Assembly (NCBI GenBank): GCA_965261595.1
Contig: CBDHDG010000004.1
Coordinates: forward strand, 320,001-384,000
Length of the DNA stretch: 64,000 nucleotides
Origin: a bacterium
GTDB lineage: Bacteria; UBA8248; JACPRG01; G963555815
Direction of reading: 5' to 3'
In this document: piece by piece, positions 7,510 through 38,269 of the stretch
Position numbering within the stretch: the first letter of the stretch is position 1
How the letters are laid out: each line of letters starts with the position of its first letter
Notes under the pieces: model-generated
Told to the model about the DNA's origin: nothing
Seen by the model: the letters and a program-made list of their open reading frames with translations, nothing else
The model's database searches: none
Program-made: the position numbers and the translations under genes

Positions 7510-8819
7510 TCACCTGGGAGGCCTTTCGTAAACCAACCGGTGGTATTTCCACTCCCCCCAATTTTTCTCGTGCTTTTTGTAAACGTCTTGGGCCTCTTCA
7601 TGGCTCAGGAGAAATGTTCGTGCATCTTCATGGCTCAGGAGAAATGTTCGTGCATCCCACAGCTCCGGAAACACCCTTTTGGCCAATGTCTTTTGCAGAT
7701 AGGGAATTCCGGATCCCTCTTCTCCGTGAGTTGAAATCCGGCCTCCACCGAGCACCCGAGCGACCATCGCGATATGCCGGTCACGAAAGTTCGAAAAGGC
7801 TTGGTCCAGTACAAGCAAGGCCTCAATGAGTGAAGCGGGCCAGGCCAATAGGGGTTGATCGGAAAATTGCAAAGTAAAAACGATTGCGCATCGGTATCGC
7901 TTCCGGAAGTACAAGTCAATTTTGCGACTCGCTTCGGCCTTCAGCCTTTTCCCATGATCCCCATGTACCTTTCCCAGCCCGCCCAGTTTCTTCAAATCAT
8001 TGGAATAGGCTTTGAGATAGATCTCCTGAAATCTCGCCGAGAAGAGGAGACTATGGCTTTTACGCGGCGGCGTCTTTCCTCCCGGGGATGGAAAAACCGC
8101 ACGATCCAGCCACTCAACGACTGTCGAACGAAGCGTTCCATTTTGGTCCAGGTCTCTGAGACGATTTTTCAAGGCATGGTTCCTGGACTTCAATTCGGGC
8201 GGCAGGATGTCAAGATTTTCAATCATATTCTTGCATGTCTTTCGATAATCCAGTAGAGACTGAAATTCCTGCTCATCACGAGTCGGGTAAACAACCTCAT
8301 TTCGTGTCCGTGATCCTTCCTTATCGTTTTTGGGAGCCTTTCCCCTCGGCAGTCTTTTCTTCTCTTCCATCAACCCTTTTTCGAACTCAACTTTCCCTGA
8401 TACATATTTCTCCAGTTTCGGATCCCGGAAACCATCAACCATTCGACTTCCAGAAATCTGTAGGAATCCCTCCCGCTGCCCCCGAATAATTGACTCCTAA
8501 AATCATAAAAGCTCGTGGTTTGCAGGGTTTCCAATAATGGAAGATGGTCCCGAACCAGATTGAAGATTTCCGCCGCGCGTCGCACATGCTGTTCGATCGG
8601 TGGAATGTCATGTTCGGGAACATAATCAGACGAAAGTAATGTGCGCGCGAACTCCAGCTCGTCCAGGATTTGTGCAAACCAGATTTCAAAGGCCTGATGC
8701 GTGCGAATGAAGAACTTCTCGTCGGGATCTTTTTTCCTTCTCCCCTTTGGCTTCACAAGGGGAAGCCGGTCAGGGAAAATATAACCATCATAAGTGTTGG
8801 GCTTATTTTTAGAAGCCAT
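7510..8819 (-). CDS. Tryptophan 2,3-dioxygenase family protein (long form), split by a 1-nt frameshift near 8432
   Basis: N part 8370-8819: DEKFFIRTHQAFEIWFAQIL, LLETL..FYDFRSQL; C part 7510-8442: FRDRHIAMVARVLG..SGIPYL..VFPELW. Adding one G (ATG-G[G]T-TTC) joins them as WLM-GFRD. Confidence 0.85.
7595..7656. repeat. 30-bp perfect tandem duplication inside the TDO 3' end
   Basis: tcttcatggctcaggagaaatgttcgtgca x2, encoding DARTFLLSHE twice on the - strand. Confidence 0.95.
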
Positions 8820-9084: not shown

Positions 9085-9528
9085 ATGAGCCCGACTTTTG
9101 ACCATGTCGGCTTGGCGACGCTGGATCTAGAGCAATCCATCGCGTTTTACCGAGACGTGATGGGCTTCGATTTTTCCAGCCGAAAGCGCCTGAGCGACGG
9201 CCGCGAACAGGCCGTTTTCCTGATCGGAGAGGGGATCCTCGTTCTGTTCCAAAGCCCCTCGGGGAATTACGTGGAAAAGGCCCGGCACGTGCGGTCGGGA
9301 ATGCACCACCTCGCCTTTGCCCTGGAACCGGAGGCATACGACGGGGTGATCGAGCGGTGCGAGACCGCCGGGGTCGCGCTGATGCGTCAGGCGATCAACT
9401 CAGGCGCGCGGGGAAAGGGTCTGGCCACTTACTTTTACGACCCCGACGGGAATGATATCGAGATCAAGAAGTACGACGGGATCCCCGAGGAGTACGAGGG
9501 TTTCACGGCCAAGGGCTACCACCTCTGA
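9085..9528 (+). CDS. VOC (glyoxalase) family protein
   Basis: FDHVGLAT.DLEQSIAFY, HHLAF, YFYDPDGNDIEI; AAGGAG RBS before ATG 9085. Confidence 0.9.
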   Translation: MSPTFDHVGLATLDLEQSIAFYRDVMGFDFSSRKRLSDGREQAVFLIGEGILVLFQSPSGNYVEKARHVRSGMHHLAFALEPEAYDGVIERCETAGVALMRQAINSGARGKGLATYFYDPDGNDIEIKKYDGIPEEYEGFTAKGYHL

Positions 9529-9626
9529 GAGGCCAAAACGCGCGCGCGACCTCCGGCCATCCGAAACGGTTGATCCGTCGAGCCCGTTCATGAAAATCGC
9601 GACAGCGCCCTGAACGAGAGTGAGAC

Positions 9627-10958
9627 ATGTCGAAAGCTCTGGACAAGCTCAACGAGCGGCTCACGGCCCACATGGAGGTGATCCTCCGCTGCACGGTCGA
9701 ATCCAAGAAATACGGCCGGCTCCTCCTGGCCTCCCCGCCGGTATCCCGCTATCCGTACGTCTACCCCCGGGACACGAACTGCGCCGTGCAGCTTTTCCGC
9801 CGCCTGGCCGGTTCGGAACGCGGCTACGACGCCGGACCGCGGGCCTTCGAGTTAATGAAATCGATGGCCCACTTCATGAAAGATGTGGTTTCCGAAGACG
9901 GCAACTGGGGTCAGCGATACAGCCTGGAGGGCGAAGACAAAAGCCTTTACAAGCAGGAAGACAACGTCGCCCACGGGGCGGCCATCATCTGCAACTATCT
10001 CCTGACCGCCCACCGCTTGAAACAACCCGTCGACGATCTGCAAAGCCTGCTCGATGCCATCGAAAAGGCCCTGCGCCACGCGCTCCGTGATTTCTACCAG
10101 CCGGAGCTGAACCTGTTTCAGTCCACCACGTCCATCCACGAATCGGCGATGGAAGAAGGTTACACGTGCTGGGTGAACTTCGCGTTCCTGTACGCGTTCT
10201 CGTTGGCGAACGAAGTGGCCGACAAATTCGACCAAGAGGGGCGGATCTCCCGTGATCACCTAAGCTTCCGAAAACACTTTCTGCATTCCGTCAACGAATT
10301 GTTCATGTCCGGGAATCGATACGTCCGGCGCATCGATCCGCAAGGACACATGGACTTCCGGCCGGACTTCACCTTGCTGAGCCCGTTTTACTTCGGTTTT
10401 CTGCATTACCGGAAAGAGATGGAGAAGAGCGTCGACTTCCTGGAGAAACAGTTGTGGGACCCCCAATTCGGGATGATCATGCGCTACCTCCCGTTCCGCC
10501 GGGACTTTACCACCCACGTCCACGCGGGCAACGGCCCCTGGCTGCAATACACGGCCATCCTGGCCCAATTCCACTATTGGAACGGAAACACCGAACGGGG
10601 CGACGGGCTGCTGGCCGCCATCGACGGGTACAGGAATGAAAAAGGCGAGATCCCCGAGCACCTGTCCACCTGCGCCCGGTTCGAGGCGTTCAGGAAAAAC
10701 GAATGGAAGACCGGCCTCGACTTCGACAAGGAATTCGACAAACACATCCTCCTGGACGACGTGGACTTCGACAAGATGCTGGAGGAGACGAACCACATGG
10801 CCGCGGCTTATCGGGAAACGGGAGGCCGGGGCATGTTTCGCGATTCGGTGGAAGCGGAGGGGGGCTACATCCAGTTCGCCACGCCCCTGATGTGGTCGCA
10901 TGTCGAGTACGCCCGCGCCCTCCTGGTCCGGGACAAAGACTGGTGGAAGGTCGCCTGA
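9627..10958 (+). CDS. Six-hairpin glycosidase, GH15 (glucoamylase)-like
   Basis: YPYVYPRD, WGQRY, QEDN, IHES, GNGPW, IPEH, ATPLMWSH correspond to GH15 (alpha/alpha)6 motifs. Confidence 0.7.
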   Translation: MSKALDKLNERLTAHMEVILRCTVESKKYGRLLLASPPVSRYPYVYPRDTNCAVQLFRRLAGSERGYDAGPRAFELMKSMAHFMKDVVSEDGNWGQRYSLEGEDKSLYKQEDNVAHGAAIICNYLLTAHRLKQPVDDLQSLLDAIEKALRHALRDFYQPELNLFQSTTSIHESAMEEGYTCWVNFAFLYAFSLANEVADKFDQEGRISRDHLSFRKHFLHSVNELFMSGNRYVRRIDPQGHMDFRPDFTLLSPFYFGFLHYRKEMEKSVDFLEKQLWDPQFGMIMRYLPFRRDFTTHVHAGNGPWLQYTAILAQFHYWNGNTERGDGLLAAIDGYRNEKGEIPEHLSTCARFEAFRKNEWKTGLDFDKEFDKHILLDDVDFDKMLEETNHMAAAYRETGGRGMFRDSVEAEGGYIQFATPLMWSHVEYARALLVRDKDWWKVA

Positions 10959-11015
10959 CACCCTGGATTTCCTACAACGAAGCGGCTTGGCCGACGATCC
11001 ACGCGTCCATCATTC

Positions 11016-11045
11016 TTGACCGCCTATGCGGCCCTACGCTAAATT
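11016..11045 (+). promoter_or_regulatory. Putative sigma70 promoter of the grd operon
   Basis: TTGACC-18 nt-TAAATT about 200 nt upstream of the GTG at 11245. Confidence 0.35.
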
Positions 11046-11244
11046 GCTCCATTGGCGGACCGCGCCCCGGACATTGTCCCGGCACCATGACGCGCGCGCG
11101 GAAACCCGCCAAAATGATGAAGTGGAAATCCTTGGAATCCCACGGTTCTTGTCCCGCCCCCCAGGGTGGACCTCCTCGGGGGGGAGTCCCTCGGGGCGGA
11201 GCCTCCCCGGGCGGACGCACCGAACGGTGAAAGCGGAGATTGCC

Positions 11245-12507
11245 GTGAAGCTGACGCTGAATTCCTTCCCGGTCGATGAAATCAAGGATTCCCGAAAAAC
11301 GGCCCTCGACGGCCACCGATTGCTGGTGAACCGGCAGGAGATGCGCGACCTCCTCCTCGAGGATGAGCGGCTCATCTCCGCGGAGATCGACTTCGCTCAT
11401 CCGGGCGAGTCCTGCCGGATCATCAACATCCTCGACATCTTCGATCCCCGTATCAAAGCCGAGGGCGAAACCTTTTGCGGAATCCTCGGCCCCGCGAAGC
11501 TCGCCGGAAGCGGGACGACGAACGTCCTGATGGGAATGAGCATCGTGACGTGCGGCCCGTTGGACGGGGCGGAGGACGCCTTCCTGGACATGACCGGTCC
11601 TTGCGCGGAGCTCAGCCCGTTCGCGGGTCTCGAAACGGTGGTCGTGCGCCTGACGCCCGCCCCCGGCCTGGACCGGGGCGGTTTCGCGAGGGCGGCGGTC
11701 GAGGCGGGCGTAAGGGCCTCCGGCTACCTGGGAGAAACCACACGGTCCGGGACGCCCGGGGGCTCGGAGCGCTTCGAGCAGACTTCGCTGTCCGGATCTA
11801 ACGGGCGCGACGATTCCCTTCCCAGGATCGCGTACATCTATCCCATTTACTCTCAGGGCGACGCCCGGGACATGCTCCTTTACGGGAGAAACACGCGCGA
11901 CCTGATCCCGACGCTCATCCACCCCAACGAGGTGATGGACGGGGCCGTTGTCTGGGCGGGGTTCTGCCGGCCCGCCAAGAATGTGACCTACAACCATCTG
12001 AACCACGGCGTCATCCGGACGCTCTACGAGGCTCACGGGCGCTCCATCTCCTTTGCGGGCGTCATCGTGACGAACCACCCCAAGCTGTTCTCCGACAAGG
12101 TCCTCTACGCGGAGATGATGGCCCGTTTCGCGGCCGACATCCTCGCCGCGGACGGGGTCATCGTCACGAAGGATTCCGGCGGCCAGGCGGACCCCGACTT
12201 GATGCAGATCTGCGAGAAGTGCGAGGAGCGGGGCGTGAAGACCACCCTTCTGACCATGGAAGCGGCCGGCGACGGCGGCTCTTCGGCGGGCGCGCTGGTG
12301 GACGCAAGCCCCCGGGCCGACGCCATCGTCGCCGTCGGAAATACCGTCGAGGAGGTCCGACTCCCCCGGATGGAGCGCATCCTAGGGGGCGACCGCCTCA
12401 AGGACTTTGAACAGGACCCGCGCGATCCCGTCGAGGTCTGTTTCAACAAGGTCCCCGGCGCCATCAGTCTGTTCGGCGACAACCGTCTCGCCGCTCTGGA
12501 GATCTAA
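11245..12507 (+). CDS. grdE: Glycine/sarcosine/betaine reductase component B proprotein subunit (GrdE/GrdG/GrdI family)
   Basis: GTG 11245 after GGAG; AHPGESCRI, PTLIHPNEVMDGA, LYEAHG...GVIVTN, ADGVIVTKD..G.AD.D, ADAIVAVGN; first gene of a grdB-grdA-grdC run. Confidence 0.88.
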   Translation: MKLTLNSFPVDEIKDSRKTALDGHRLLVNRQEMRDLLLEDERLISAEIDFAHPGESCRIINILDIFDPRIKAEGETFCGILGPAKLAGSGTTNVLMGMSIVTCGPLDGAEDAFLDMTGPCAELSPFAGLETVVVRLTPAPGLDRGGFARAAVEAGVRASGYLGETTRSGTPGGSERFEQTSLSGSNGRDDSLPRIAYIYPIYSQGDARDMLLYGRNTRDLIPTLIHPNEVMDGAVVWAGFCRPAKNVTYNHLNHGVIRTLYEAHGRSISFAGVIVTNHPKLFSDKVLYAEMMARFAADILAADGVIVTKDSGGQADPDLMQICEKCEERGVKTTLLTMEAAGDGGSSAGALVDASPRADAIVAVGNTVEEVRLPRMERILGGDRLKDFEQDPRDPVEVCFNKVPGAISLFGDNRLAALEI

Positions 12508-12529
12508 AGATTTTTTCGGAGGCCCGGCC

Positions 12530-13834
12530 ATGGCCGCCCCATACCGCGTGGTCCATTACCTGAATCAGTTTTTCTTCGGCCTCGGCGGCGAAGAGAAGGC
12601 ATCCATCGAGCCGACCGCGAAAGCGGGTCCCCTCGGTCCCGGCCGGCCCTTGCAGGAAGCGCTGGGCGGCGAAGCGGAGATCGTCAAAACCGTCACGTGC
12701 GGGGACAACTTTTTCGCCGAGCGCGCCGAGGAGGCATCGGATCGGCTCCTGGATCTCATCGAGGAGTCGCGGCCCCACCTCCTCCTGGCCGGGCCCGCCT
12801 TCGACGCCGGCCGCTACGGCCTGGCGTGCGGCCACTTGTGCCGAAAAGCCGGCGCGACCCTGAACATCCCCGCCATCACCGCTCTGGCGCCCGGAAACCC
12901 GGGCATCGAGCATAGCAAGGACGTCTACATCCTCTCCACCTCGAACAGCGTCCGCGGGATGAACCCGGCCCTCCAAGACATGGCCCGCCTCGGTCTCAAG
13001 CTGATGCGGGGAGAACCCCTGCGTTCCGCCCGCGAGGAAGGATATCTTCCAAGGGGGTTCCGGAAAAATTTCCGCGTCGAGAAGCGCGGAGCGGATCGGG
13101 CGCTCGACATGATCCTGGCCAAGGTCCGGGGGCGGGCTTTCGAGACCGAGCTCATCCTGCCCAAGTTCGACGGGGTCCCCCCGGCCCCGCCCGTCAAGGA
13201 CCTGGAATCCGCCAAAATCGCCCTGGTCACCACGGAAGGACTGGTCCCCAAAGGCAACCCCGACCGGATGGACTCGACCCGGGCCGACCGTTACGCCAAA
13301 TACCGTATCGAGGACCTTGACGCCCTCGACGCCTCGGCCTTTGAATTCCACCACGGGGGATTCTCCACCGCGGACGTCAATAACGACCCCCACCGGGCCG
13401 TTCCCCTGGACGTCCTCCGGGAGATGGAGCGCGAGGGCCGGATCGGCAAGCTCTTCGGCGACATCTACAGCTTTGCCGGATGCAGCACGTACTACGAAAC
13501 GGCCGCCGGGATGGGGCGCGAGATCGCCCGGGAGCTGAAGGGACGCGGCGTGAACGCCGTCCTCATCCTCTCATCCTGAGGGACGTGCACCCGCTGCGGG
13601 TCAGCGGTCGCGAAGGAGATGGACAGAGAGGGCGTTCCGGCGGCGCTGATCACCACCTTGATCTCGGTCGCCAAAAACGTGGGCGCGAACCGAATCGTTC
13701 CCGGCGCCGGCGTCCCCCACGTAACCGGAAATCCGGACCTGGGACCGGAGGGCGAGCGAGCGCTTCGCGCCGCGCTCGTCGAGCGGGCCCTGACGGCCCT
13801 CACCACCCCGCTGGAAGAGCAGCGGGTGTTCTGA
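12530..13834 (+). CDS. grdB: Glycine/sarcosine/betaine reductase selenoprotein B (GrdB/GrdF/GrdH family), 434 aa, Sec at codon 350 (TGA 13577-13579)
   Basis: RVVHYLNQFF.GLGGEEKA N-terminus, GPAFDAGRYG, VPKGNPD; the TGA reads through as ILSS-U-GTCTRCG, in frame with the 13619-13834 ORF (VGANRIVPG..PH). Confidence 0.95.
13580..13611 (+). promoter_or_regulatory. Bacterial SECIS-like hairpin for GrdB Sec
   Basis: CCGCTG-CGGGT-CAGCGG stem (13591-13607) starts 11 nt after the UGA; G-containing apical loop 17 nt after the UGA. Confidence 0.75.
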
Positions 13835-13930
13835 ACATTCGGCGGCGGGACCGCCCCTTCGAGATTCGGCGGCGGCATCCGGCTAAGGCCAGCCCGGCGG
13901 TTTTCGGGCGATGATTCGAGAGGAGGATCC

Positions 13931-14395
13931 ATGCTCAAAGGAAAAAAGGTGATCGCCCTGGGCGAACGGGACGGCGTGCCGGGCGACGTCGTTGCCGAGT
14001 GCGCCGAGGCGGCGGGTGCCCAGGTTGTCCTTCAGATGACCGAGTGCTTCGTCTGAACATCGGCCGGCGCCATGGACATGGAGCGTCAGGGCGATATCCG
14101 ATCCATCGTCGAAGAGCGCAGCCGGGAAGACCTCATCGTCGTTCTCGGCGCGACAGACGTGGATTTCCTGTCGCTGGCGGCGGAGACGGTCGTCTCCGGC
14201 GACCCCAGCTATGCCGGTCCATTGGCGGGAGTCTCGTTGGGACTCCCTGTGTACCACATTCTGGAGCCCGGGCTTCGCGCGGAGATCCCCGCGCCGCTCT
14301 ATCAGGAGAAGCTTGAGCTCGTCTCGATGGTCGCCGACCTGCCCGGAATCGGCCGGGCGTTGGAGAAGTTTCGCGCGGCGCCCACGGGAGATTGA
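13931..14395 (+). CDS. grdA: Glycine/sarcosine/betaine reductase selenoprotein A, 154 aa, Sec at codon 42 (TGA 14054-14056)
   Basis: AGGAGG RBS; MLKGKKVIALGERDGVPG...TECFV-U-TSAGAMDMERQ...AETVVSGDPSYAGPLAGVSLGLPVYHILE, the GrdA CxxU signature. Confidence 0.96.
14057..14087 (+). promoter_or_regulatory. Bacterial SECIS-like hairpin for GrdA Sec
   Basis: GGCG-CCAT-GGAC-ATGG-(AG)-CGTC hairpin (14066-14087); GGAC loop 17 nt after the UGA, same spacing as in grdB. Confidence 0.75.
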
Positions 14396-14455
14396 CACCC
14401 GGACGGCCGTGGCGCGGCCCCCGGCGGCCTCACGCCTGCTGACCCACGGAGGATC

Positions 14456-15838
14456 ATGCGAAAGGCGACGATTTCGGCCTCAACGTGCGTTCTCGCGCAC
14501 ACGCCCGCGCTCGTTCGGTACGGCTCGAAGCCCTTCCGGGAGAGCCGGCGCGACGGCGGCTTCCTGCCGGCCCTCGAAGCCCGGATCCGGTCCTTCGAGG
14601 CGGCCGCCGCCTACCCGCCCAACCAGGTGTTTATCGGGAACCTCCCCCCCCAAGCCCTGCGGGACATCGATCCTCCTTGGTATGAACATCGGTCACCGGG
14701 GGCGGAACGAACGTCGCCCACGGGTGAGATCATCCCGGAGGACCGTTTCCTCGCCCTCCTCAACTCAGCCGACGCGTTCGGCCTCATCGACCTGTCTGAG
14801 GATTTTTGCCGAACGATAGGGCTGGAGGGCGCCGGCTCATCGCGCGACTTCTCGGGCCTGGGGAGCGCGGACGCCGAGCTGCCCCTGTTCTTCGAGGGTG
14901 AGGCCGTGGGGCGAATCCGATCGGACCATGAAGAAGACGATTCCCTCAAGGCGGCCGTTCTGCTCGAAAACCTGGCAGCGAAGGCCTCGGCCTTTCAGGC
15001 GCTGGAGCTGCTGCTGGCTCACCCCGGCGTTCCCGGCCGCGATTCGCTGGATTTCATCATCGGCTGTTCGGAGGAAGCCGTCGGCGACCGCTACCAACGG
15101 GGCGGCGGGAACCTCGCCAAGGCTGTCGGCGAGATGGCCGGACTCGCCCAGGCCGGCGGAGCGGACGTCAAGAACTTCTGCGCCGGCCCCCTTCAGGCGC
15201 TCATCTTCGCGGGCAGCCTCGTGGCGTCCGGGGTGTTCGACCACGTGGCCGTCGTCGGCGGGGGTTCCCTTCCCAAGCTGGGGATGAAGGCGTCCGCCCA
15301 CCTGGAGCGCGACATGCCGATCCTGGAGGACGTCCTGGCCGGCTTCGCCGCATGGGTGTCGGCGGACGGAGAAGGCCCCCGGATCCGATTGGATGGAACG
15401 GGCTTTCACCGGATCGGCGCCGGAAACGCCCAACAGGCCATTCTCGAATCCCTCGTGGCCGAGCCCCTCGGGCGCCTCGGCCTGCGCATCACCGACGTCC
15501 CCGTGTACGCGACCGAGCTCCACAATCCCGAGATCACCGTCCCCGCCGGCGGCGGCGACGTTCCCCGGACGAACTACAGGTTCATCGGGGCGCTGGCCGC
15601 CCTTCGCGGGGAGATCGACCGCTCGGAGATCGACCGCTTCGCCGACGACCACGGGCTGCCGGGGTTCTCCCCCTCGCAAGGGCACATTGCCTCCGCCGTG
15701 CCGGCCCTCCCCCACGTCCTTCGGCGGTTCACGGAGGACGGTCTCGACCGGGCGTTCTTTCTCGCGAAGGGGAGCCTCTTTCTCGGCCGGATGACCCGGC
15801 TTTCAGACGGGGTTTCTTTCCTGCTTGACGCCGGTTGA
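14456..15838 (+). CDS. grdC: Glycine/sarcosine/betaine reductase component C beta subunit (FabH-like)
   Basis: YPPNQVFIGN, LLENLAAKAS, CSEEAVGDRYQRGGGNLAKA, FCAGP, ELHNPEIT.PAG.GDVP, PSQGHIAS, KGSLFLGRMT. Confidence 0.93.
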   Translation: MRKATISASTCVLAHTPALVRYGSKPFRESRRDGGFLPALEARIRSFEAAAAYPPNQVFIGNLPPQALRDIDPPWYEHRSPGAERTSPTGEIIPEDRFLALLNSADAFGLIDLSEDFCRTIGLEGAGSSRDFSGLGSADAELPLFFEGEAVGRIRSDHEEDDSLKAAVLLENLAAKASAFQALELLLAHPGVPGRDSLDFIIGCSEEAVGDRYQRGGGNLAKAVGEMAGLAQAGGADVKNFCAGPLQALIFAGSLVASGVFDHVAVVGGGSLPKLGMKASAHLERDMPILEDVLAGFAAWVSADGEGPRIRLDGTGFHRIGAGNAQQAILESLVAEPLGRLGLRITDVPVYATELHNPEITVPAGGGDVPRTNYRFIGALAALRGEIDRSEIDRFADDHGLPGFSPSQGHIASAVPALPHVLRRFTEDGLDRAFFLAKGSLFLGRMTRLSDGVSFLLDAG

Positions 15839-15924
15839 GGGCCGATCGGCGGGAGGGGCGGCCGGAAACCGGTCCCTTCTCATCGGGCGGACTCCAAGCG
15901 CAACCGGAGAGACCGCCCGAAGAA

Positions 15925-15953
15925 ATGACACGTCAACGACAAACTGCTACCAT
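15925..15953 (+). promoter_or_regulatory. Putative sigma70 promoter for the Rieske-amidohydrolase pair
   Basis: ATGACA-17 nt-TACCAT with extended -10 TGn. Confidence 0.4.
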
Positions 15954-15995
15954 CGACACGAGTGGACTGAAGAAACAGATTGGGGAGAAGCAAAC

Positions 15996-16361
15996 GTGCC
16001 GGGGTTGTATGTGGGAAACGTGGAGGAGTTCGAAGAGCGCGGGTGCAAGATCATCGGCCAGGGGGACATCGAGATCGGCGTGTTCCGGGTCGGGGAGGAA
16101 TATTACGCCTACCGAAATGTCTGCCCCCACCAAGGCGGCCCGGTCTGCCAGGGGCGGATCCTGGGCAAGGTGGAACAAAGCCTAGCCGAGGACAAAACAA
16201 GCCGGGGGCTGAGGTTCTCGAACGATCACATCCACATCATCTGCCCCTGGCACGGTTATGAGTTCGATCTCCAAACCGGGGTTCATCCGGGGGACCATCG
16301 CGTCCGCCTGGTCGGTTATCCGATAGAACGCCGCGGAAATGAAATCTACGTCGTCGTGTGA
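15996..16361 (+). CDS. Rieske [2Fe-2S] ferredoxin
   Basis: CPHQG...CPWHG Rieske motif; GTG at 15996 after GGGGAG. Confidence 0.92.
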   Translation: MPGLYVGNVEEFEERGCKIIGQGDIEIGVFRVGEEYYAYRNVCPHQGGPVCQGRILGKVEQSLAEDKTSRGLRFSNDHIHIICPWHGYEFDLQTGVHPGDHRVRLVGYPIERRGNEIYVVV

Positions 16362-16393
16362 CGCGCTCCTCACACAGGAGGGGAGAATGACAG

Positions 16394-17641
16394 ATGAGTG
16401 ATCCTCAGACGGAGCAGGTGGCGGAAAAAATCCGGGAGTTGGAGCGAATCGGCGATCAGACCGACACGCGCGAAATCCTGGCCCTGGCGAAGAAGCAGGC
16501 CATCGAGAGGAAATACGAAGACTACGTGATCGTGGACGCCGACTGCCACCACATGGAAACCGCGTCCTGGAAGAATATCCTCCAGTACGTCGAAGACCCG
16601 GTCATCCGCCAACAGGCCCTGGACTTCCAGGCCCGGGTCGCGTCTCCCCATTACGGCCTGATCGATCCGCTCGCCTACCACCAGGACGCGGGCGGACGCA
16701 TCCGGCACCAGCGCCACCAAGGCTGGAGCGAGTCCGGCGAAGACGCGGGCGTTCATCGCGACATCGTCCAGATCCGTCGCTCGCTGGAGTGCCTCGGGAT
16801 CGACTATTCGGTGCTCTTTCCGACAAGAATGCTGGCCCTGGGGATGAACCCGCAGATCGAGATGGAAGTCCTGATGGGCCGGGCCTACAACCACTGGATG
16901 GTCGATCAGGTGCTGCCGGGCGACGACCGGATTAAGTCGCTCCTCTATCTGCCCTTCAGCGCGCCGGACGCGGCGTTGCGCACGATCGAGGAGTTCTCCG
17001 ACAAACCCGGCGTGATCGGCTTCCTGGTCACGAGCGTCCGGAACATTCCGGTTCACGACGACCGGTACATGAAGATTTACGCCGCCCTCGAGGAGCGCGG
17101 GCTTCCCCTCGCCTTCCACGGCGGTTACTCCTGGCACGACCCGAGCATGGCCCAATTCGACCGGTTCATCGGGGTGCACGCCATGGGCTTCGTGTTCTGG
17201 CCCATGGTCCACCTGATCAACTGGGTGATCCACGGAATCCCCGAACGGTTTCCGAACCTCGACATCATTTGGCTCGAGGCCGGTCTGGCCTGGGCGATCT
17301 TCCTGATGGAGCGCCTGGACGGCGAGTACATGAAGCGCATCTCCGAGGCGCCGCTGCTGAAAAAGAAGCCGAGCGAGTACATCCGGGAGATGCACTTCAC
17401 CACCCAGCCCCTCGAAATGGATAACCTCAAGGCGCTGGAGCTGAACTTCGAGATGCTCAACGCCGAGACGCAGGTCCTGTACGCCTCGGACTGGCCGCAC
17501 TGGGATTTCGACCTCCCCAGCACGATATTCGATCTGCCCTTCCTCAGCGATCAGGCCAGACGGAACATCCTGGGCGAGACCGCGATGAAGCTGTTCAAAC
17601 TGGAGAAGCCGCGCAAAAAGATCATTCCCGCCGACAATTAG
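16394..17641 (+). CDS. Amidohydrolase_2-fold protein, candidate dinuclear oxygenase
   Basis: VDADCHHME, RAYNHW, LAFHG, ERFPNL..WLEAG, ASDWPHWD; AGGAGG RBS; directly after the Rieske gene. Confidence 0.88.
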   Translation: MSDPQTEQVAEKIRELERIGDQTDTREILALAKKQAIERKYEDYVIVDADCHHMETASWKNILQYVEDPVIRQQALDFQARVASPHYGLIDPLAYHQDAGGRIRHQRHQGWSESGEDAGVHRDIVQIRRSLECLGIDYSVLFPTRMLALGMNPQIEMEVLMGRAYNHWMVDQVLPGDDRIKSLLYLPFSAPDAALRTIEEFSDKPGVIGFLVTSVRNIPVHDDRYMKIYAALEERGLPLAFHGGYSWHDPSMAQFDRFIGVHAMGFVFWPMVHLINWVIHGIPERFPNLDIIWLEAGLAWAIFLMERLDGEYMKRISEAPLLKKKPSEYIREMHFTTQPLEMDNLKALELNFEMLNAETQVLYASDWPHWDFDLPSTIFDLPFLSDQARRNILGETAMKLFKLEKPRKKIIPADN

Positions 17642-18522
17642 AAGACGCCCGCCGGATCATGTCGAATGTCCGAAGAGCAGGCAGCGCCTCTTCCTGAATC
17701 ATCATGCCGATCTCGGCCCCGACCCCTCCGATTCGGGCGGCCTCGTGGAGGACGGCCGCGCGGTGGGTCTTCCTCACCGAGGTCAGAATGGTCTCCCGGT
17801 CGAGGGGGGCGACGGTCCTGAGATCGATCACCTCCACGTCCATCCCTTCCTCCGCCATCCGGTCCGCGGCCGAAAGGGCCAGGGGGACCATGGCCCCCAG
17901 CGCGACCAGCGTCAGATCGCTTCCCCGCCTCCGGACCTCCGCCTCTCCCAGTGGGACCGTGCAATCCCCCTCCGGAACGTCGCCCTGGACGGAATAGAGC
18001 CCCTTGTTTTCCAGGAAAAGGACCAGATTGTCTTCCCGAATGGCCGTCTTGAGGAGCCCTTTGGCGTCGGCGGGATTCGAGGGCATGACGACCCGGACGC
18101 CGGGGACGTGCAGGAACCAGGCTTCGAGGCTCTGGACGTGCGTCGCGCCGTTGGGGAACTGGCTCCCTAGGGCGCGCGGATGACGGCGGGGACCTTCACC
18201 TGCCCCCCCGACATGTAGCGGATCTTCGCCCCGAGGTTGACGATCTGGTCCATGGCCAGGGTGATGAAATCAAAGAATTGAAGCTCCGCCACGGGGCGGG
18301 TCCCGGCGATGGCGGCGCCGATGGCCGCGCCGACGTAGCTGGTCTCGGAGATGGGCGTGTCGATCACGCGGCCCGGTCCGAACTCGGCCAGCAGGCCCCG
18401 GGTCACCGTGAAGGACCCGTCGAAAATGGCGATGTCCTCCCCGAGACAAAAGACCAGGGGTCGCGTCGCATCTCTTCCCGCAGGGCCTCGTTCAGGGCTT
18501 CGGCGAACGTGATTCTACGCAA
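17638..18522 (-). pseudogene. 2-oxoacid/acetoin dehydrogenase E1 beta subunit, disrupted and 3'-truncated
   Basis: GEDI, RVIDTPISE, PVAELQFFDF, QSLEAWF, PSNPADAKGLL, VIDLRTVAPLD; in-frame TAG at 18167-18169, several frame changes, normal C-terminus missing. Confidence 0.8.
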
Positions 18523-18534
18523 AATCGAAATCCT

Positions 18535-19582
18535 TCAAGCAAATACGTCCGTCAACGCCTCTTCATCCGCCGGGGGCGGACTGGAAAGCGCGAACTCGGC
18601 CGCTTCTTCCACCTCTTTCTCCACCCGGTCCCGTATGGCCGCCTCTTGCCCTGCGCTCAACGACCCCGCGTCCTTCAACAACTTCCTGAGCCGGTCAATC
18701 GGGTCCCGCTTCAGCCAGGCCTCCTTTTCCTCGGCGCTGCGGTATCGCTCATGATCGGCGGTGTAGTGGCCCTTGTGACGATAGGTTTTGCACTCGATGA
18801 GCGTCGGGCCTCCCCTTCCCCCCCCTCCCCCTCCCCTCCCCCTCCCCCTTTCGGGCGCGCGCCACGGCGGATTGGACGGTTTCATAAACGGCGACCGCGT
18901 CGTTTCCGTAGATGACCACGCCGGGCATGTCGTAAGCGGACGCGCGGGCGCCGATGTCCTGGACGGAGGTCGAGACCCCGACGGCGACGGACATGGCGTA
19001 GAGGTTGTTCTCACAGATGAAGATCTCCGGCAGCCGCCAGAGGCTGGCCATGTTGAGACACTCGTGAAACGTCCCCTGGTTCGCGGCGTCGTCGCCGAAG
19101 AATACGACGGTCACCTGGTCCGTCCCCTTGACCTTCGCGGCGAGTCCCCCGCCCAGCCCCAGGGGCAGCCCGCCGCCGACCAGGCTGATGGTCCCCAGCA
19201 TCCCCACTATCGATGCTCTGGACGTGGAGGGTTCCGCCCTTGCCCTTGTTGTAGCCCGTCCCCTTGCCCAGGAGCTCGGCCAGAAGCCGCTTCATCGTCC
19301 CGCCCTTGGCCAGGACGTGGCCGTGCCCCCGGTGGGTGCTGACGATGTAATCATCCGGACGCAGGCAGGCGCACGCACCGGCGGCGACGGCCTCTTGACC
19401 GATGTAGGGATGCAGGTTGCCGGGGATTTGCCGGGCGGCGTGCATCTCGAGGGATTTCTCCTCGCACCGGCGGATCCGGAGCATCTGCTCGTAGATGCCC
19501 AGAAGGAGCGCGGCGCTTTCGAGGGAGGTCCACTTGCGGCTCTTGCCCGGCGCCTTCGTGGGGGCCGCCCAAACACTTGCAT
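18535..19582 (-). pseudogene. 2-oxoacid/acetoin dehydrogenase E1 alpha subunit, several frameshifts
   Basis: LHPYIGQEAVA, STHRGHGH, FFGDDAANQGTFHECLN, ENNLYA, PTLIECKTYR..GH spread over three ORFs. Confidence 0.8.
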
Positions 19583-30668: not shown

Positions 30669-32365
30669 CCCGCATTTCCCATATGGATGATAATTTTTAA
30701 CGCCCCGAAGGCCGTTTTCTCGTGTAAAATTAAGGTGTTGGCCTCTCCCTGCCATCATCTTGCGAGGGGACCCAATGGGTGAAGCGAAAAAGAGGCCGTT
30801 GAGGCTCCAATTCGACGGTCGGCTCAGGCTGGAGTTTCATGGAGCAAAGGTTACGAGTGACGCCGGTTTGCTTGCCTATCGTGAACTGGATGAGGTGTTG
30901 GGGCTAACGAAGGCGGCCGAGGGGTTTCTGTCCGATTCACGGACGGGCGGGAACACCCGGCACAGCCTCACCGCTTTGGTGCGCCAGTCGGTCTACAGCC
31001 GCCTGGCAGGATATAAAGACACCAATGATGCCGAGCGGCTCTGTGTCGATCCCGCCATGCGTCAGGTGGTTGGGGGGCGAGCGAAGTATCACACCGCTGC
31101 CTCCACCAGCCAGATGAGCCGATTCGAGACGCAGACCCTCACCCGGCCCCTTAACCCCTCAAGGCGCTGAGCGGTCTGCCCGGTGTGTTGGTGGATCGTG
31201 TCCGCAAACGCAAGCCGATTCGCAAGCTGATCCTGGACATGGACAGTTCGGTCAGCCCGACCCACGGTGAGCAGGAAGGCTCTTCCTACAACGGCCACTT
31301 CGGCTGCACCTGCTATCACCCACTGTTTTGCTTCAACCAGTTTGGCGATCTGGAGCGGGCGCTGTTGCGCAACGGCAAGGTCCACAGCGCTGATGACTGG
31401 CGGTCTGTATTGGAGCCGGTGGTAGCTCGCTACCGGGATGCGAAGGTCTGTCGGTTTTTTCGAGGCGACGCGGCATTTGCCAAGCCGGAGGTGTACCGAT
31501 ACCTTGAGGCGGAGGGCTACTCCTATGCGATTCGGCTTCCGGCCAACGCCATCTTGTACAGGGACATCGAATACCTTCTGACCCGGCCGGTTGGCCGACC
31601 GCCCAAAAGGCCCATTATCTTCTACCACAGCGTCTCCCCTATCAGGCGGCTAGTTGGGAGAAGCCTCGCCGGGTGGTGGTGGCGGTCGAGTGGCACCAGG
31701 GCGAGTTGTTTCCAAGAGTCAGCTTCATCGTGACCAACCTGCACTGGCGGGAAGAGAACGTCGTGAGGTTCTACAACCAGCGTGGGACGGCGGAGCAGTG
31801 GATCAAGGAGGGCAAGTACGCCCTGAACTGGACGCGCCTGTCCTGCCACGGCTTTGAAGAGAACCAGGTTCGCTTGCAACTATTTGCCTTGGCGTACAAC
31901 CTGGCAAACTTCCTGCGGCGGCTGGCGTTGCCCAGAGCGGTGAAGCACTGGTCGCTGACGACGTTACGCGAGAAGCTGATTAAGATTGGGGCCAAGGTGG
32001 TCACCCACGCCCGGCACACCACCTTCCAGATGGCCGAGGTGGCCGTGCCGCGTCAACTGTTCAGGGCAATCCTTGAACGAATTCGACGGTTGTGGTTACC
32101 GCCTCCCGTACCAGATACCGGATGACGGAGCAGATGGCCCGGAAGCTTAGTGACGTGGTGGAGACGGGGGATCAGTCTGTGCCGAACTCCCCTGAGTGTG
32201 CCGGTAGAGCTGGGTTTTCAAGGGATTGCGGCTTTAGGACGGCCGTTGCCCCTCGATTGAGCAGAGGGTTCTGCAAAGAGACCCTGAATCTGTAGTAAAA
32301 TGGGGTACTTTGATGACACAGGAGGACCGCAGGATGGCTAAGAGTGGTCATCTGGGAAATCCCGG
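30669..32365 (+). mobile_element. IS1380-family insertion sequence; transposase (about 30775-32125) frameshifted twice
   Basis: [45 protein letters not shown]; imperfect IRs cccgcatttcccatatg / catctgggaaatcccgg. Confidence 0.88.
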
Positions 32366-32445
32366 ATAATGTTGTGCGACGGCTCCCTGAAGAGGATCGT
32401 GAACGCTGCTCTCTGGACACTACGCCTGCGCCGTGCTGCGTTTAG

Positions 32446-34140
32446 CCTGGATATCTCACAAAGAAAGAGAGCCAAGCCGGTTTTTTTCGGGTAAACTCTT
32501 TTTGATCAACGGGTTGCCCGAAGAAAGGAGACCGACTTGACTCGCACACAGTGTATCGCAGAACAGATGGAATTCCAAGGGTTGGGTTCTCGGCGTGTGA
32601 TCGCCACTTCCAACGGCGGGGCGATCACCTCTGATGCGGGCGGTCTTTTGCTACGCGACACCGAGGGGCGGGTGAAGCTGATCGCAGGCTTCGCGGCCTG
32701 TTTTGAGGACGGTCGGGACGCGAGGCGGGTGGAAGATGAGTTGTGGGCGTTGTTGCGGCAGCGGGTGTACGCGCTGGCGCTTGGCTATGAGGACGTCAAT
32801 GACCACGAGCGGCTTCGCTTTGACCCGATGCTCCAGATCCTCTCGGGCAAGCTGGAGGCCACGCGGCGCAAGGGGGGTCCGGCCCTTGCGGGCAAGAGCA
32901 CGCTGAACCGTTTGGAGCGTCTTGCGGGCGATGGCGATGAGCGCTACCACAAGATCGCCTACCGAGGCGAGGCGATCGACCGGCTGTTGGTGGAGGGCTT
33001 CCTTCGGTCGCAGAGGCGGGCGCCGGGTCGGATCGTTTTGGACATCGACGCCACCGACGACCCGGTGCACGGCTGTCAGGAGGGGCGTTTCTTCCACGGC
33101 TATCACGGTCATTACTGCTACCTTCCGCTTTACATCTTCTGCGGGGATTTCCTTTTGTGCGCTCGGCTTCGGCCCTCCAATATCGACGCCTCCTCGGGGG
33201 TGGTGGAGGAGTTGGAGCGGATCGTTGCCCAGATTCGGGCACGCTGGCCGCAGGTGTCGATCCTGCTTCGGGCGGATTCGGACTTCTCGCGCGAGTGGAT
33301 CATGGCCTGGTGCGAGGCGCAGGGGGTGGATTACGTGTTCGGCCTGGCCAAGACCTCCCGGCTGCAGGAAGCGGTGAAGGACGAGCTGGCCGAAGCGAAG
33401 GCGCGTCATCAGAGCACGGGGAAGGGGGCGCGGTTATTCCGGTCGTTTCCTCACCGGACGCTTACATCCTGGAGCCGGGTGCGGCGGGTGGTCGCCAAGG
33501 CCGAGCACCTGGCCAAGGGCGCCAATCCGCGCTTCATCGTGACTTCGCTGGACGAGGAGGCGATCGACGCGAAGCCTCTGTACGAGCGCATCTACTGCGC
33601 CCGGGGGACGATGGAGAACCGGCTCAAGGAGCAGCAGCTCGACCTGTACGCGGACCGGACGTCGTGCACGCGGATGCGCTCCAATCAGTTGCGGCTCTAC
33701 CTGTCGGCGGTGGCCTATGAACTGATGCATGCGTTGCGTCGGCTAGGCCTTCGGGGGACGGCGTTTGCAAAGGCAACGTGTGGAACGGTGCGGACGCGGC
33801 TGCTGAAGATCGGGGCGCAGGTTCGGGTGAGCGTGCGGCGAGTGCACGTGGCCCTTGCGACGGGTTATCCGTACATGAATGTGTTCTTCCACGCCTGGCG
33901 GAACCTGCGCGCGGGGCCGGAGGGAGAGCCCGCCGTCTAAGACAGATTGCAAAATGAACGCGCAGGGAGTCGAGGCAAACGTGCGTGCGGAGCCGAGCCA
34001 AATCGGCCAAAAAGCCCCTCTCACGGGTCAACTCCAACCACCCACCGGCCCTGGTTCCACCGCAAAAGCGACAGACAGGAAAAAACACTCCAATTCACAC
34101 CCGATAATCCATCCGCCGAGTGGGTGGTGAGAAATGCGGG
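32446..34140 (+). mobile_element. IS1380-family insertion sequence with intact transposase
   Basis: Imperfect IRs cctggatatctcac / gtgagaaatgcggg around the 32537-33940 transposase. Confidence 0.88.
32537..33940 (+). CDS. IS1380-family DDE transposase
   Basis: ITSDAGGLLL, GYEDVNDH, LDIDATDDPVHG.QEG, LRADS, YCARGTMENRLKEQQ; AAGGAG RBS and TTG start. Confidence 0.93.
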   Translation: MTRTQCIAEQMEFQGLGSRRVIATSNGGAITSDAGGLLLRDTEGRVKLIAGFAACFEDGRDARRVEDELWALLRQRVYALALGYEDVNDHERLRFDPMLQILSGKLEATRRKGGPALAGKSTLNRLERLAGDGDERYHKIAYRGEAIDRLLVEGFLRSQRRAPGRIVLDIDATDDPVHGCQEGRFFHGYHGHYCYLPLYIFCGDFLLCARLRPSNIDASSGVVEELERIVAQIRARWPQVSILLRADSDFSREWIMAWCEAQGVDYVFGLAKTSRLQEAVKDELAEAKARHQSTGKGARLFRSFPHRTLTSWSRVRRVVAKAEHLAKGANPRFIVTSLDEEAIDAKPLYERIYCARGTMENRLKEQQLDLYADRTSCTRMRSNQLRLYLSAVAYELMHALRRLGLRGTAFAKATCGTVRTRLLKIGAQVRVSVRRVHVALATGYPYMNVFFHAWRNLRAGPEGEPAV

Positions 34141-35429: not shown

Positions 35430-36389
35430 GTGCGCGAAGGGGATCTATGGCCCGCGCTGCGGGCGTACTGGCATCCGGTCGCTTTCGCGGAAGCCGTCGG
35501 CGAAAAACCGCTGGCCGTCCGGCTCCTGGATGAGCGGATCGCGGTCTGCCGCCTCGGGGGCCGGGCGGTCGCCTTCCACGACCTCTGCATCCACCGGGGG
35601 ACGCCGATCTCCCTGGGTTGGGTGGAAGGCGAGCACATGGTCTGCGCCTATCACGGCTGGGCCTACGACGCCGGAGGAAAGTGCGTCCGGATTCCGTCGG
35701 TTCCCCCCGGGCATCCCATCCCCAAAAAGGCATGCCTCACCCGTTACCCTACGCAGGAGCGCTACGGCCTGGTGTGGGTTTGCCTGGACGAGAAACCCCG
35801 GGCGCCCATCCCCGAGTTTCCGATGCTGGAGGCTCCGGACGTTCGGTGGGTTTACCGCGACAGAAGAATCTGGAATTGCAGCGCCGCGCGGGCCATAGAA
35901 AACTTTCTCGATCTGGGCCATCTGCCCTGGGTGCACGAAGGAATCCTGGGCGACCGCGAGCATCCGCTGACCCCGGATATCGACGTCGTCCGGGACGGTG
36001 AAGAGATCCGGTTCACGGTGGACCAGCGGCCCGACAAATCCCACGACAATCCTTTTCAACGGATCTATCGCGTCAACCGGCCCTTCGCCGTCTCCATGCT
36101 GAAAGAAGAAGCGGACGGAAACGCGGAGCTCTTGGTTTTTGTCTGCACCCCGCATACGGCGCGGGAGAGCACCCGGTGCGTTTTGATCGGACGGAATCAT
36201 GAACCGCCGTCCGAAGCGGCCCGGATCGAAATGTTCAACAACACCATCATCGAGCAGGACCGGACGATTGTCGAAAACCAGCGCCCGGAGGAGCTTCCGC
36301 TGGATTTGACGGAGGAGCTTCACCTCAAGGGGCCGGACGCCCCCGCCCTCGGATACCGGAGGATGATGAGAGAGCTCGGCGTAGAATAG
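35430..36389 (+). CDS. Rieske non-heme iron oxygenase alpha subunit (VanA/NdmA demethylase-like), paralog 1
   Basis: CIHRG..CAYHG Rieske; ENFLDLGHLPWVH iron motif; EQDRTIVENQRP. Confidence 0.92.
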   Translation: MREGDLWPALRAYWHPVAFAEAVGEKPLAVRLLDERIAVCRLGGRAVAFHDLCIHRGTPISLGWVEGEHMVCAYHGWAYDAGGKCVRIPSVPPGHPIPKKACLTRYPTQERYGLVWVCLDEKPRAPIPEFPMLEAPDVRWVYRDRRIWNCSAARAIENFLDLGHLPWVHEGILGDREHPLTPDIDVVRDGEEIRFTVDQRPDKSHDNPFQRIYRVNRPFAVSMLKEEADGNAELLVFVCTPHTARESTRCVLIGRNHEPPSEAARIEMFNNTIIEQDRTIVENQRPEELPLDLTEELHLKGPDAPALGYRRMMRELGVE

Positions 36390-37309: not shown

Positions 37310-38269
37310 ATGCGTGAAGGAGATCTTTGGCCCGCGCTGCGGGCGTACTGGCATCCGGTCGCTTTCGCGGAAGCCGTCGGCGAAAAACCGCTGGCCGTCC
37401 GGCTCCTGGATGAGCGGATCGCGGTCTGCCGCCTCGGGGGCCGGGCGGTCGCCTTCCACGACCTCTGCATCCACCGGGGGACGCCGATCTCCCTGGGTTG
37501 GGTGGAAGGCGAGCATGTGGTCTGCGCCTATCACGGCTGGGCCTACGACGCCGGCGGGAAGTGCGTCCGGATTCCGTCCATTCCCCCCGAGCATCCCATC
37601 CCCAAGAAAGCCTGCCTCACCCGTTACCCTACGCAGGAGCGGTACGGCCTGGTGTGGGTTTGCCTGGATAAGAAACCCCGGGCGCCCATCCCCGACCTTC
37701 CGATGTTGGAAGACCCCTCTTTGCGCGTGGTGGTCCGCGACCGCAGGGTGTGGCAATGCACCGCCGCCCGCGCCATCGAGAACTTTCTCGACCTGGCCCA
37801 CATCCCCTGGGTGCACGACGGGACGCTCGGCAACCATAACAATCCTCAGACCCAGGACGTCGATCTGGAAAGAGACGGCGAAGAGCTCCGGTTCACGGTC
37901 CAAGACGTTTCCGATCATTTGCACGCGCTCGCCTGCGTACGCTCGTATCGAACCCACCGGCCGTTCTCGGTCTTCCTGTTGAAAGAGGAATCCGACGGAA
38001 GCACGGAGATCATGTGGTTCAGCTGCACACCGCATTCAGCAAAATCCTGTACGCGGTGCATCCTGATTGCCAGAAATTTCGATCCGCCTCCGGGCGTGTC
38101 CAGAATCGAAGACATCGAAGAGATCGTCATCGCCGAAGACCAGGGCATCGTCGAAAACCAGCGGCCCGAGGAGCTTCCACTGGATTTGACCGAGGAGTTT
38201 CACCTGAAAGGGCCGGACGCCCCCGCCCTTGCATACCGCCGGATGATGAGAGAACTCGGCGTGGAGTGA
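37310..38269 (+). CDS. Rieske non-heme iron oxygenase alpha subunit, paralog 2
   Basis: Same Rieske motif; ENFLDLAHIPWVH; AEDQGIVENQRP. Confidence 0.92.
   Translation: MREGDLWPALRAYWHPVAFAEAVGEKPLAVRLLDERIAVCRLGGRAVAFHDLCIHRGTPISLGWVEGEHVVCAYHGWAYDAGGKCVRIPSIPPEHPIPKKACLTRYPTQERYGLVWVCLDKKPRAPIPDLPMLEDPSLRVVVRDRRVWQCTAARAIENFLDLAHIPWVHDGTLGNHNNPQTQDVDLERDGEELRFTVQDVSDHLHALACVRSYRTHRPFSVFLLKEESDGSTEIMWFSCTPHSAKSCTRCILIARNFDPPPGVSRIEDIEEIVIAEDQGIVENQRPEELPLDLTEEFHLKGPDAPALAYRRMMRELGVE

Follow-up and report, generated by a model that had tools for sequence, protein, structure and literature searches.

The window analysed here is a stretch of 64,000 nucleotides from a bacterium of the GTDB lineage UBA8248 (assembly GCA_965261595.1, contig CBDHDG010000004.1; C4:320001-384000 of the host genome). 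This genome comprises 6.17 Mb in 7 contigs, with 63% GC and 96.7% completeness. An intact four-gene operon, grdE-grdB-grdA-grdC, fills window positions 11245-15838, with all genes on the plus strand. Profiles from NCBIfam and Pfam assigned all four components of the Grd superfamily, namely protein A, selenoprotein B, the protein B alpha subunit and the protein C beta subunit. The features of the locus, including selenocysteine (Sec) codons and putative selenocysteine insertion sequences (SECIS), are:

11245-12507, plus strand: grdE-like gene, protein B alpha subunit, 420 amino acids (PF09338, 357 bits)
12530-13834, plus strand: grdB-family selenoprotein B, 434 amino acids, with UxxCxxC and a family-specific pocket motif
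13577-13579, plus strand: Sec codon U350 of GrdB, TGA read-through giving ILSS-U-GTCTRCG
13591-13607, plus strand: apical stem-loop of the GrdB SECIS, stem 13591-13596 with 13602-13607, loop CGGGU
13931-14395, plus strand: grdA, selenoprotein A, 154 amino acids, with CxxU
14054-14056, plus strand: Sec codon U42 of GrdA, TGA read-through giving TECFV-U-TSAGAMD
14067-14084, plus strand: probable GrdA SECIS, less well supported, loop GGAC at 14074-14077
14456-15838, plus strand: tail-less grdC, protein C beta, 460 amino acids, thiolase-type fold, with E206, C242 (codon at 15179-15181) and H410 and the signature residues K25, R212, Y213, K278 and H356
11016-11045, plus strand: weak sigma-70-like promoter match upstream of grdE, 9/12 positions matching

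The original prediction had read the TGA at 13577 as codon 350 of GrdB and that at 14054 as codon 42 of GrdA, both encoding Sec, and these coordinates and motifs proved right. The read-through products match full-length models, with 482 bits for GrdB on the subfamily model TIGR01918 (cut-off 65) and 184 bits for GrdA on NF040748 (cut-off 130). GrdC reaches 533 bits on NF040746 (cut-off 450). A search for the Sec machinery recovered selA (550 bits), selB (390 bits), selD (330 bits) and selC, the tRNA-Sec (UCA), from the host genome, all above cut-off; selD itself has one in-frame TGA. Among loci L062-L080 and L083-L160 (L081 and L082 were excluded as duplicates), TGA is retained in 87/87 GrdB and 90/91 GrdA homologues covering the site, and sequence is conserved on both sides of it. 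The one GrdA homologue that departs from this has TGG and is itself a broken copy. Contigs from run X15, of another study, cover window positions 9500-17800 with few differences, none of them listed at either TGA, and one of these contigs spans grdA, grdC and the following gene.

A hairpin with its loop 17 nt downstream had also been proposed for each TGA. Shuffled sequences folded at least as stably as the native single sequences (z 0.04 to 0.79), so that no SECIS was demonstrable in this way, and the minimum free energy fold of grdB chooses another hairpin. Covariation nevertheless bore out the grdB element. Its 6-bp stem (positions 15-20 with 26-31, the TGA being positions 1-3) is paired in 342/342 cells across 57 distinct homologous sequences; 26 cells have changes on both sides, and compensatory changes occur at 3/6 pairs. 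Slid controls pair at 24-56%, and 0/500 shuffles matched the native pairing, a count that is not a probability because the 57 sequences are related. The CGGGU loop begins 17 nt past the TGA. The grdA hairpin stood only in part. With loop GGAC at the same 17-nt offset, it is equalled in folding by 2/200 synonymous recodings, in a comparison of four family-level sequences, and it was not recovered as one structure across the class.

The Sec machinery, the conserved UGA codons and the GrdB SECIS together support Sec recoding of UGA, and hence the status of both products as predicted bacterial selenoproteins. Sec recoding as such is ordinary for this selenoprotein-rich lineage; PMC13326102 gives counts of 48-54 selenoprotein genes for genomes of GTDB UBA8248, which NCBI names Nitrospinota. 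A crude scan of the host genome returned 54 TGA candidates, many with AhpD-, Prx- and DsbA-like motifs and some of them noise. Candidate selenoprotein genes in the genome thus number in the dozens; about ten are AhpD-like with CxxU, and several are Prx- and DsbA-like with UxxC. At C5:687.1-688.0 kb, a TGA (UxxC) interrupts a short PrdB-like gene that has no prdA neighbour among the listed frames.

The real oddity of the operon is the absence of GrdD. Canonical protein C is described in PMC9908766 as GrdC plus GrdD. In the host genome the GrdD model NF040747 gave one 27-bit match only (cut-off 350), which adjoins a FabH-like motif and which we therefore infer to be PlsX; tblastn of the host genome with real GrdD gave no match. 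Home-built hidden Markov models of the full GrdD protein, or of the catalytic C-terminal domain bearing the Cys that is reported to be the acetyl-thioester site of the canonical enzyme, found nothing in the host beyond the 27-bit match (best E 5.4). The positive control for the GrdD search returned 549-581 bits in 3/4 control records. In wider surveys, composed mostly of incomplete assemblies and of related genomes that are not independent, GrdD was above cut-off in 0/41 class genomes compared with 26/41 for GrdC; six of the grdC-bearing genomes are single contigs. The best 80 GrdC loci in a species collection come mostly from Actinomycetota and also from Dormiibacterota, Chloroflexota, Binataceae and Deltaproteobacteria; among those with a name, the nearest (71%) belongs to a Nitrospinota bacterium. 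None of the 50 genomes tested behind the top GrdC loci, mostly actinobacterial, had GrdD. In the phylum of genome G071, GrdC occurs in 16/401 genomes and GrdD in 0/16 of these; the corresponding figures for the phylum of genome G056 are 15/251 and 4/14 tested, the four GrdD-bearing genomes acting as a further positive control.

Acetate kinase and phosphotransacetylase (Pta) were likewise sought, and neither was found in the host genome at its 96.7% completeness. Acetate kinase is absent from 25/25 grdC-bearing class relatives and present in 4/4 grdD genomes. Heme-copper oxidase subunit I is present in the host genome, which upholds the predicted co-occurrence with aerobic metabolism.

GrdC itself occurs in two kinds. 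We sorted 215 GrdC loci by tail, setting 3 aside as cut or frameshifted. Tail-less GrdC (130/215 loci), the kind found in the window, ends 0-22 residues past the last strand, and grdD lies in the flank at 0/130 loci (at least 1 kb of downstream sequence was available at 118/130). Tailed GrdC (74/215) continues for 33-41 residues, helix-like in nearly all, and has grdD directly behind it in 69/74. Four others end on short contigs, and locus L190 has an unlike 59-residue extension and no grdD. The remaining 8/215 loci are GrdC-GrdD fusions, which have neither the tail nor the GrdD N-terminal helix. Natural fusions of about 850 amino acids were seen on metagenome contigs and among cluster representatives (L231, L236, L248, L253, L269, L274; P0007, P0011, P0012, P0015). 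The co-occurrence of tail and grdD, together with the fusions, suggests that the GrdC tail helix and the GrdD N-terminal helix dock the two subunits. A predicted complex for locus L196, pairing canonical GrdD with the tail of GrdC, scored 0.02 and gave no verdict, so the suggestion leans on these two observations.

The two kinds also differ at five positions. Tail-less GrdC has K25 (59/60), R212, Y213 and K278 (60/60 each) and H356 (56/60), where tailed GrdC (n=45) has T, M, N, N and Q. This split holds over all 215 loci, with L190 and the frameshifted L265 sorting by grdD status. Three further residues, E206, C242 and H410, are invariant in 105/105 GrdC. C242 aligns with the nucleophile of FabH and thiolase, and the three presumably parallel the Glu-Cys-His set of HMG-CoA synthase. 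The structure model of the host GrdC (predicted local distance difference test, pLDDT, 94.5) has a thiolase-type fold. In a fold search, HMG-CoA synthase, type III polyketide synthase (PKS), OleA and FabH tied at Z 23-24 (root-mean-square deviation 3.4-5.4, ~260-300 residues aligned). We take K25 and K278 to fall in segments that bind coenzyme A (CoA) in FabH. In a FastTree phylogeny of GrdC (72 rows), a single branch separates the tailed and fused group from the rest; the tail-less GrdCs, on the more divergent side of this unrooted tree, fall into several deep clades, the 80 canonical loci having been chosen by likeness to one query.

The substrate module departs from the glycine type as well. 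GrdB is below the cut-offs of the glycine (TIGR01917, 448/602 bits), sarcosine (NF040794, 499/800) and betaine (NF040795, 430/775) models, and GrdE is below those of the GrdG and FarE models. The GrdB glycine motif, as given in the accessible part of PMC9751293, occurs in 0/89 GrdB of the GrdD-less type compared with 45/61 controls, and GNCxxxC in 0/80 GrdE of this type compared with 45/49 controls. Canonical GrdE is a proprotein with Cys242 as pyruvoyl precursor (PMC9908766, in part); the window GrdE has Phe in this column and Cys one residue later. PMC10838667 describes the pyruvoyl processing site as missing from betaine GrdI and fluoroacetate FarE as well, neither substrate forming a Schiff base. 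The original assignment to a Stickland glycine reductase therefore fails: the genome has no grdD and neither acetate kinase nor Pta, and GrdB and GrdE do not carry the motifs of the glycine type. Judged from these sequences, the substrate is probably a compound other than glycine.

The window GrdB, its C5 paralogue and two family orthologues form a clade of their own, which stands apart from the actinobacterial and sister-family clades; their pocket motif is GCSTYY and their UxxCxxC is intact. Sister-family GrdB carry UxxGxxS and most actinobacterial GrdB UxxGxxC, not UxxCxxC (L065-L080, L083-L160). Such varied motifs suggest that several different substrate or recycling chemistries may exist. 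The host genome has three grdE/grdB pairs, one grdA and one grdC, a pattern consistent with several substrate modules feeding one core. The two further pairs, at C5:933333-936205 (L024) and C2:301914-304711 (L025), have an in-frame TGA and lie without grdA or grdC near xanthine-dehydrogenase-type, UbiD, cyclase and amidohydrolase genes; their GrdB are 66% and 45% identical to that of the window. A class relative (G035; L072, L073) has two complete, divergent GrdD-less operons. For the GrdB structure model (pLDDT 92.6; predicted template modelling score 0.56), a fold search found nothing more specific than alpha/beta domains of generic type, aligned to residues 2-174 (Z ≤11), which gave no substrate clue, and no sequence relative of GrdB was found in the PDB. 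Matches of GrdE to designed repeat proteins were rejected as spurious.

We propose that the operon encodes a functional two-selenoprotein reductase of the Grd family, of a GrdD-less type distinct from Stickland glycine reductase, in which GrdC most likely delivers acetyl-CoA. Taken as a whole, this proposal stands at about an even chance. Its steps are inferred from the canonical mechanism. Sec350 of GrdB, with the GrdE-like subunit, would attack a substituted acetate, X-CH2-COO-, and displace its leaving group. The GrdE-like subunit shares with GrdI and FarE the lack of a pyruvoyl motif, so the substrate is probably one that reacts without a Schiff base; candidates are haloacetates and onium compounds such as betaine. 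The carboxymethyl group would then pass to Sec42 of GrdA, with re-reduction by thioredoxin, and the C2 unit would be captured by GrdC as an acetyl thioester on Cys242. Without GrdD, GrdC itself would release the acetyl group, most likely to CoA, like its fold relatives. The output would be acetyl-CoA for an aerobic heterotroph, or detoxification of the substrate, and not substrate-level ATP. For this last step acetyl-CoA is the leading candidate by analogy, falling just short of an even chance; hydrolysis to acetate is distinctly less probable, and acetyl phosphate or transfer to another partner are each improbable.

A number of points weigh against the proposal. CoA binding by GrdC is suggested by the fold and by the CoA-binding positions of FabH, and the basic residues of GrdC might just as well serve to hold phosphate or to contact the acidic GrdA. 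Among 14 tail-less cluster representatives, 3 (P0018, P0022, P0023) lack the basic signature. The joint split of tail, grdD and signature counts as one event and not many, because it is a single change on the tree. Acetate kinase is retained in 24/51 GrdD-less genomes outside the class, and the host genome, at 96.7% completeness, is not closed. GrdE may yet be processed, since a Cys lies beside the canonical position in 2/4 clade members. Across about 100 neighbourhoods, no conserved transporter or pathway gene near the operon points to a substrate. Three seawater metatranscriptomes yielded RNA contigs overlapping the operon, but these cover the flanking genes equally and show neither level nor strand, and we do not claim transcription of the operon.

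Of the alternatives, the one that survives best keeps the upstream chemistry and lets GrdC hydrolyse the acetyl thioester, in a detoxifying or leaving-group-scavenging route whose acetate would be salvaged by acetyl-CoA synthetase. It would fit the joint absence of GrdD, AckA and Pta, a genome rich in redox selenoproteins, and motifs at C6 near 990 kb that we take for those of acetyl-CoA synthetase. FarBE provides a precedent for dehalogenation (PMC10838667, in part). A hydrolytic GrdC would have no need of newly fixed residues, basic or aromatic, but these are invariant across very divergent tail-less clades, and we consider this route unlikely. Phosphorolysis by tail-less GrdC itself is less likely still. 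Its basic residues would form a phosphate site and its product would be acetyl phosphate, which suits the basic signature and the acetate kinase kept by those 24 genomes outside the class; however, the host is without acetate kinase and Pta, and the grdC-bearing class relatives are uniformly without acetate kinase.

Replacement of GrdD by an unrelated, unlinked acyltransferase, thioesterase or carrier is a similarly long shot. Grd modules are often split over the genome, as are the two extra grdE/grdB pairs of the host, but thioredoxin is the sole additional gene conserved in the ~100 neighbourhoods. Very improbable, and largely refuted, is the reading that the operon encodes a standard reductase of glycine, sarcosine or betaine whose grdD fell into an assembly gap, or that it is a decaying remnant: although the assembly is in 7 contigs, frameshifted genes lie near 17.6-19.5 kb and GrdB keeps UxxCxxC, grdD is absent from all of the more than 100 tested genomes with tail-less grdC, single-contig ones included, the four frames are intact and conserved, and GrdB falls below all three substrate-specific cut-offs.

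Beyond the preferred reading of a GrdD-less, acetyl-CoA-forming reductase, we offer a broader idea only tentatively, holding it rather more doubtful than not. Tail-less GrdC would be a stand-alone terminal enzyme that converts carboxymethyl-Se-GrdA to acetyl-CoA, and the GrdD-free form would perhaps be older and more diverse, because tail-less GrdCs span deep clades while the tailed and fused ones form a single clade in an unrooted tree whose canonical side was sampled around one query. The clostridial acetyl-phosphate enzyme may have arisen later, by recruiting a PlsX-like GrdD via the helix pair.

No description of a GrdD-less Grd system was found in the literature at title and abstract level; such genomes may nevertheless stand in the supplements that accompany PMC9751293 and PMC13326102. 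Grd selenoproteins outside clostridia have been published for deltaproteobacteria, spirochaetes and Chloroflexi (PMC1794560, PMC9751293; both in part). Reviews, in their accessible parts, present Grd reductases as anaerobic and acetyl-phosphate-forming, and aerobes as rarely keeping selenoproteins (PMC13188914, PMC10298544). The GrdD-less Grd system is an uncharacterised branch in an oxygen-respiring bacterium. Its setting is not out of the ordinary, the same four-gene unit being common in the class as well as in Actinomycetota, Dormiibacterota, Chloroflexota and Binatia genomes. With the GrdD-free branch in 26/41 class genomes and in many actinobacterial and Chloroflexota ones, annotation of grdABC as glycine fermentation would be wrong there. 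It also offers a natural experiment on how protein C makes an acetyl thioester from a selenoether and on the role of the invariant Cys of GrdC, and a single-subunit GrdC with named signature residues makes the mechanism of protein C directly testable. If tail-less GrdC is indeed such a stand-alone terminal enzyme, aerobic marine and soil bacteria gain a selenium-based route from substituted acetates to acetyl-CoA at no cost in ATP.

Neighbourhood clustering for a substrate gene or a GrdD substitute showed thioredoxin as the only conserved gene. It lies inside the unit in 54 related loci and is absent from the window operon; TrxB and Trx homologues are encoded elsewhere in the host genome, unlinked. 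No BCCT transporter was found in the host genome, and two OpuAC-family binding proteins are encoded elsewhere in it. The promoter scan returned 2 sites compared with 0.3 expected, the second (15925-15953) fronting the next gene, which encodes a Rieske protein. The O2-dependent neighbours named in the original prediction are real as regards two Rieske genes and a desaturase. The supposed tryptophan 2,3-dioxygenase (TDO) gene (7510-8819, minus strand) consists of two overlapping frames, neither of which comes near the family cut-off, in a stretch of lower GC (~0.55) with a short tandem duplication near the gene end. Because the Rieske, desaturase and TDO genes are not conserved alongside the operon, we rejected a functional link between it and them. 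Two Rieske oxygenase alpha genes (35430-36389 and 37310-38269; Rieske and VanA_C) are near-identical and flank a short-chain-dehydrogenase-like gene. At 17622-19484 (minus strand), genes resembling 2-oxoacid dehydrogenase E1 alpha and beta carry several frameshifts, one at a G-rich run, from either assembly error or decay. Open reading frames at 31089-33940 were judged by eye to be transposase-like.

Set beside known systems, the operon resembles clostridial glycine reductase (control L162, Acetoanaerobium noterae) in its CxxU GrdA, UxxCxxC GrdB, GrdE-like subunit, GrdC and in-frame SECIS. The GrdBs are 45% identical and the catalytic-looking residues of GrdC invariant. In contrast to that system, the window operon lacks grdD and trx genes, its genome lacks ackA and pta, and the host has a heme-copper oxidase; GrdC is without the 33-41-residue tail and has K25, R212, Y213 and K278, and neither the glycine motif of GrdB nor GNCxxxC of GrdE is present. 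Betaine reductase GrdH/GrdI (control L161, Enterococcus gilvus) likewise has a partner subunit without the pyruvoyl-precursor Cys, and the window enzyme therefore probably uses no Schiff base. The GrdH pocket motif differs, however, and GrdH falls in a separate clade, its model giving the window GrdB 430 of the required 775 bits; GrdH loci carry grdD and a BCCT transporter, the latter missing from the host. Sarcosine reductase GrdF/GrdG (L164, Peptoclostridium acidaminophilum) supplies the best-scoring specific model (499 bits, 47% identity), but the window proteins stay below the NF040794 (800) and NF040793 cut-offs and lack the GrdF motif, and GrdG has GNCxxxC. Fluoroacetate reductase FarBE of Cloacibacillus porcorum (PMC10838667, in part) sets a precedent, since its GrdBE module leaves the E subunit unprocessed and acts on a substituted acetate that is not an amine. 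It differs in that GrdE scores 157/675 bits on the FarE model NF053623, that FarB lacks the CxxC kept by the window GrdB, and that the Far host has grdD. At only 9-19% identity, and with CoA binding that for GrdC is predicted, the thiolase superfamily (HMG-CoA synthase, FabH, OleA, type III PKS, PhlA) shares with GrdC both its fold and the position of the nucleophilic Cys.

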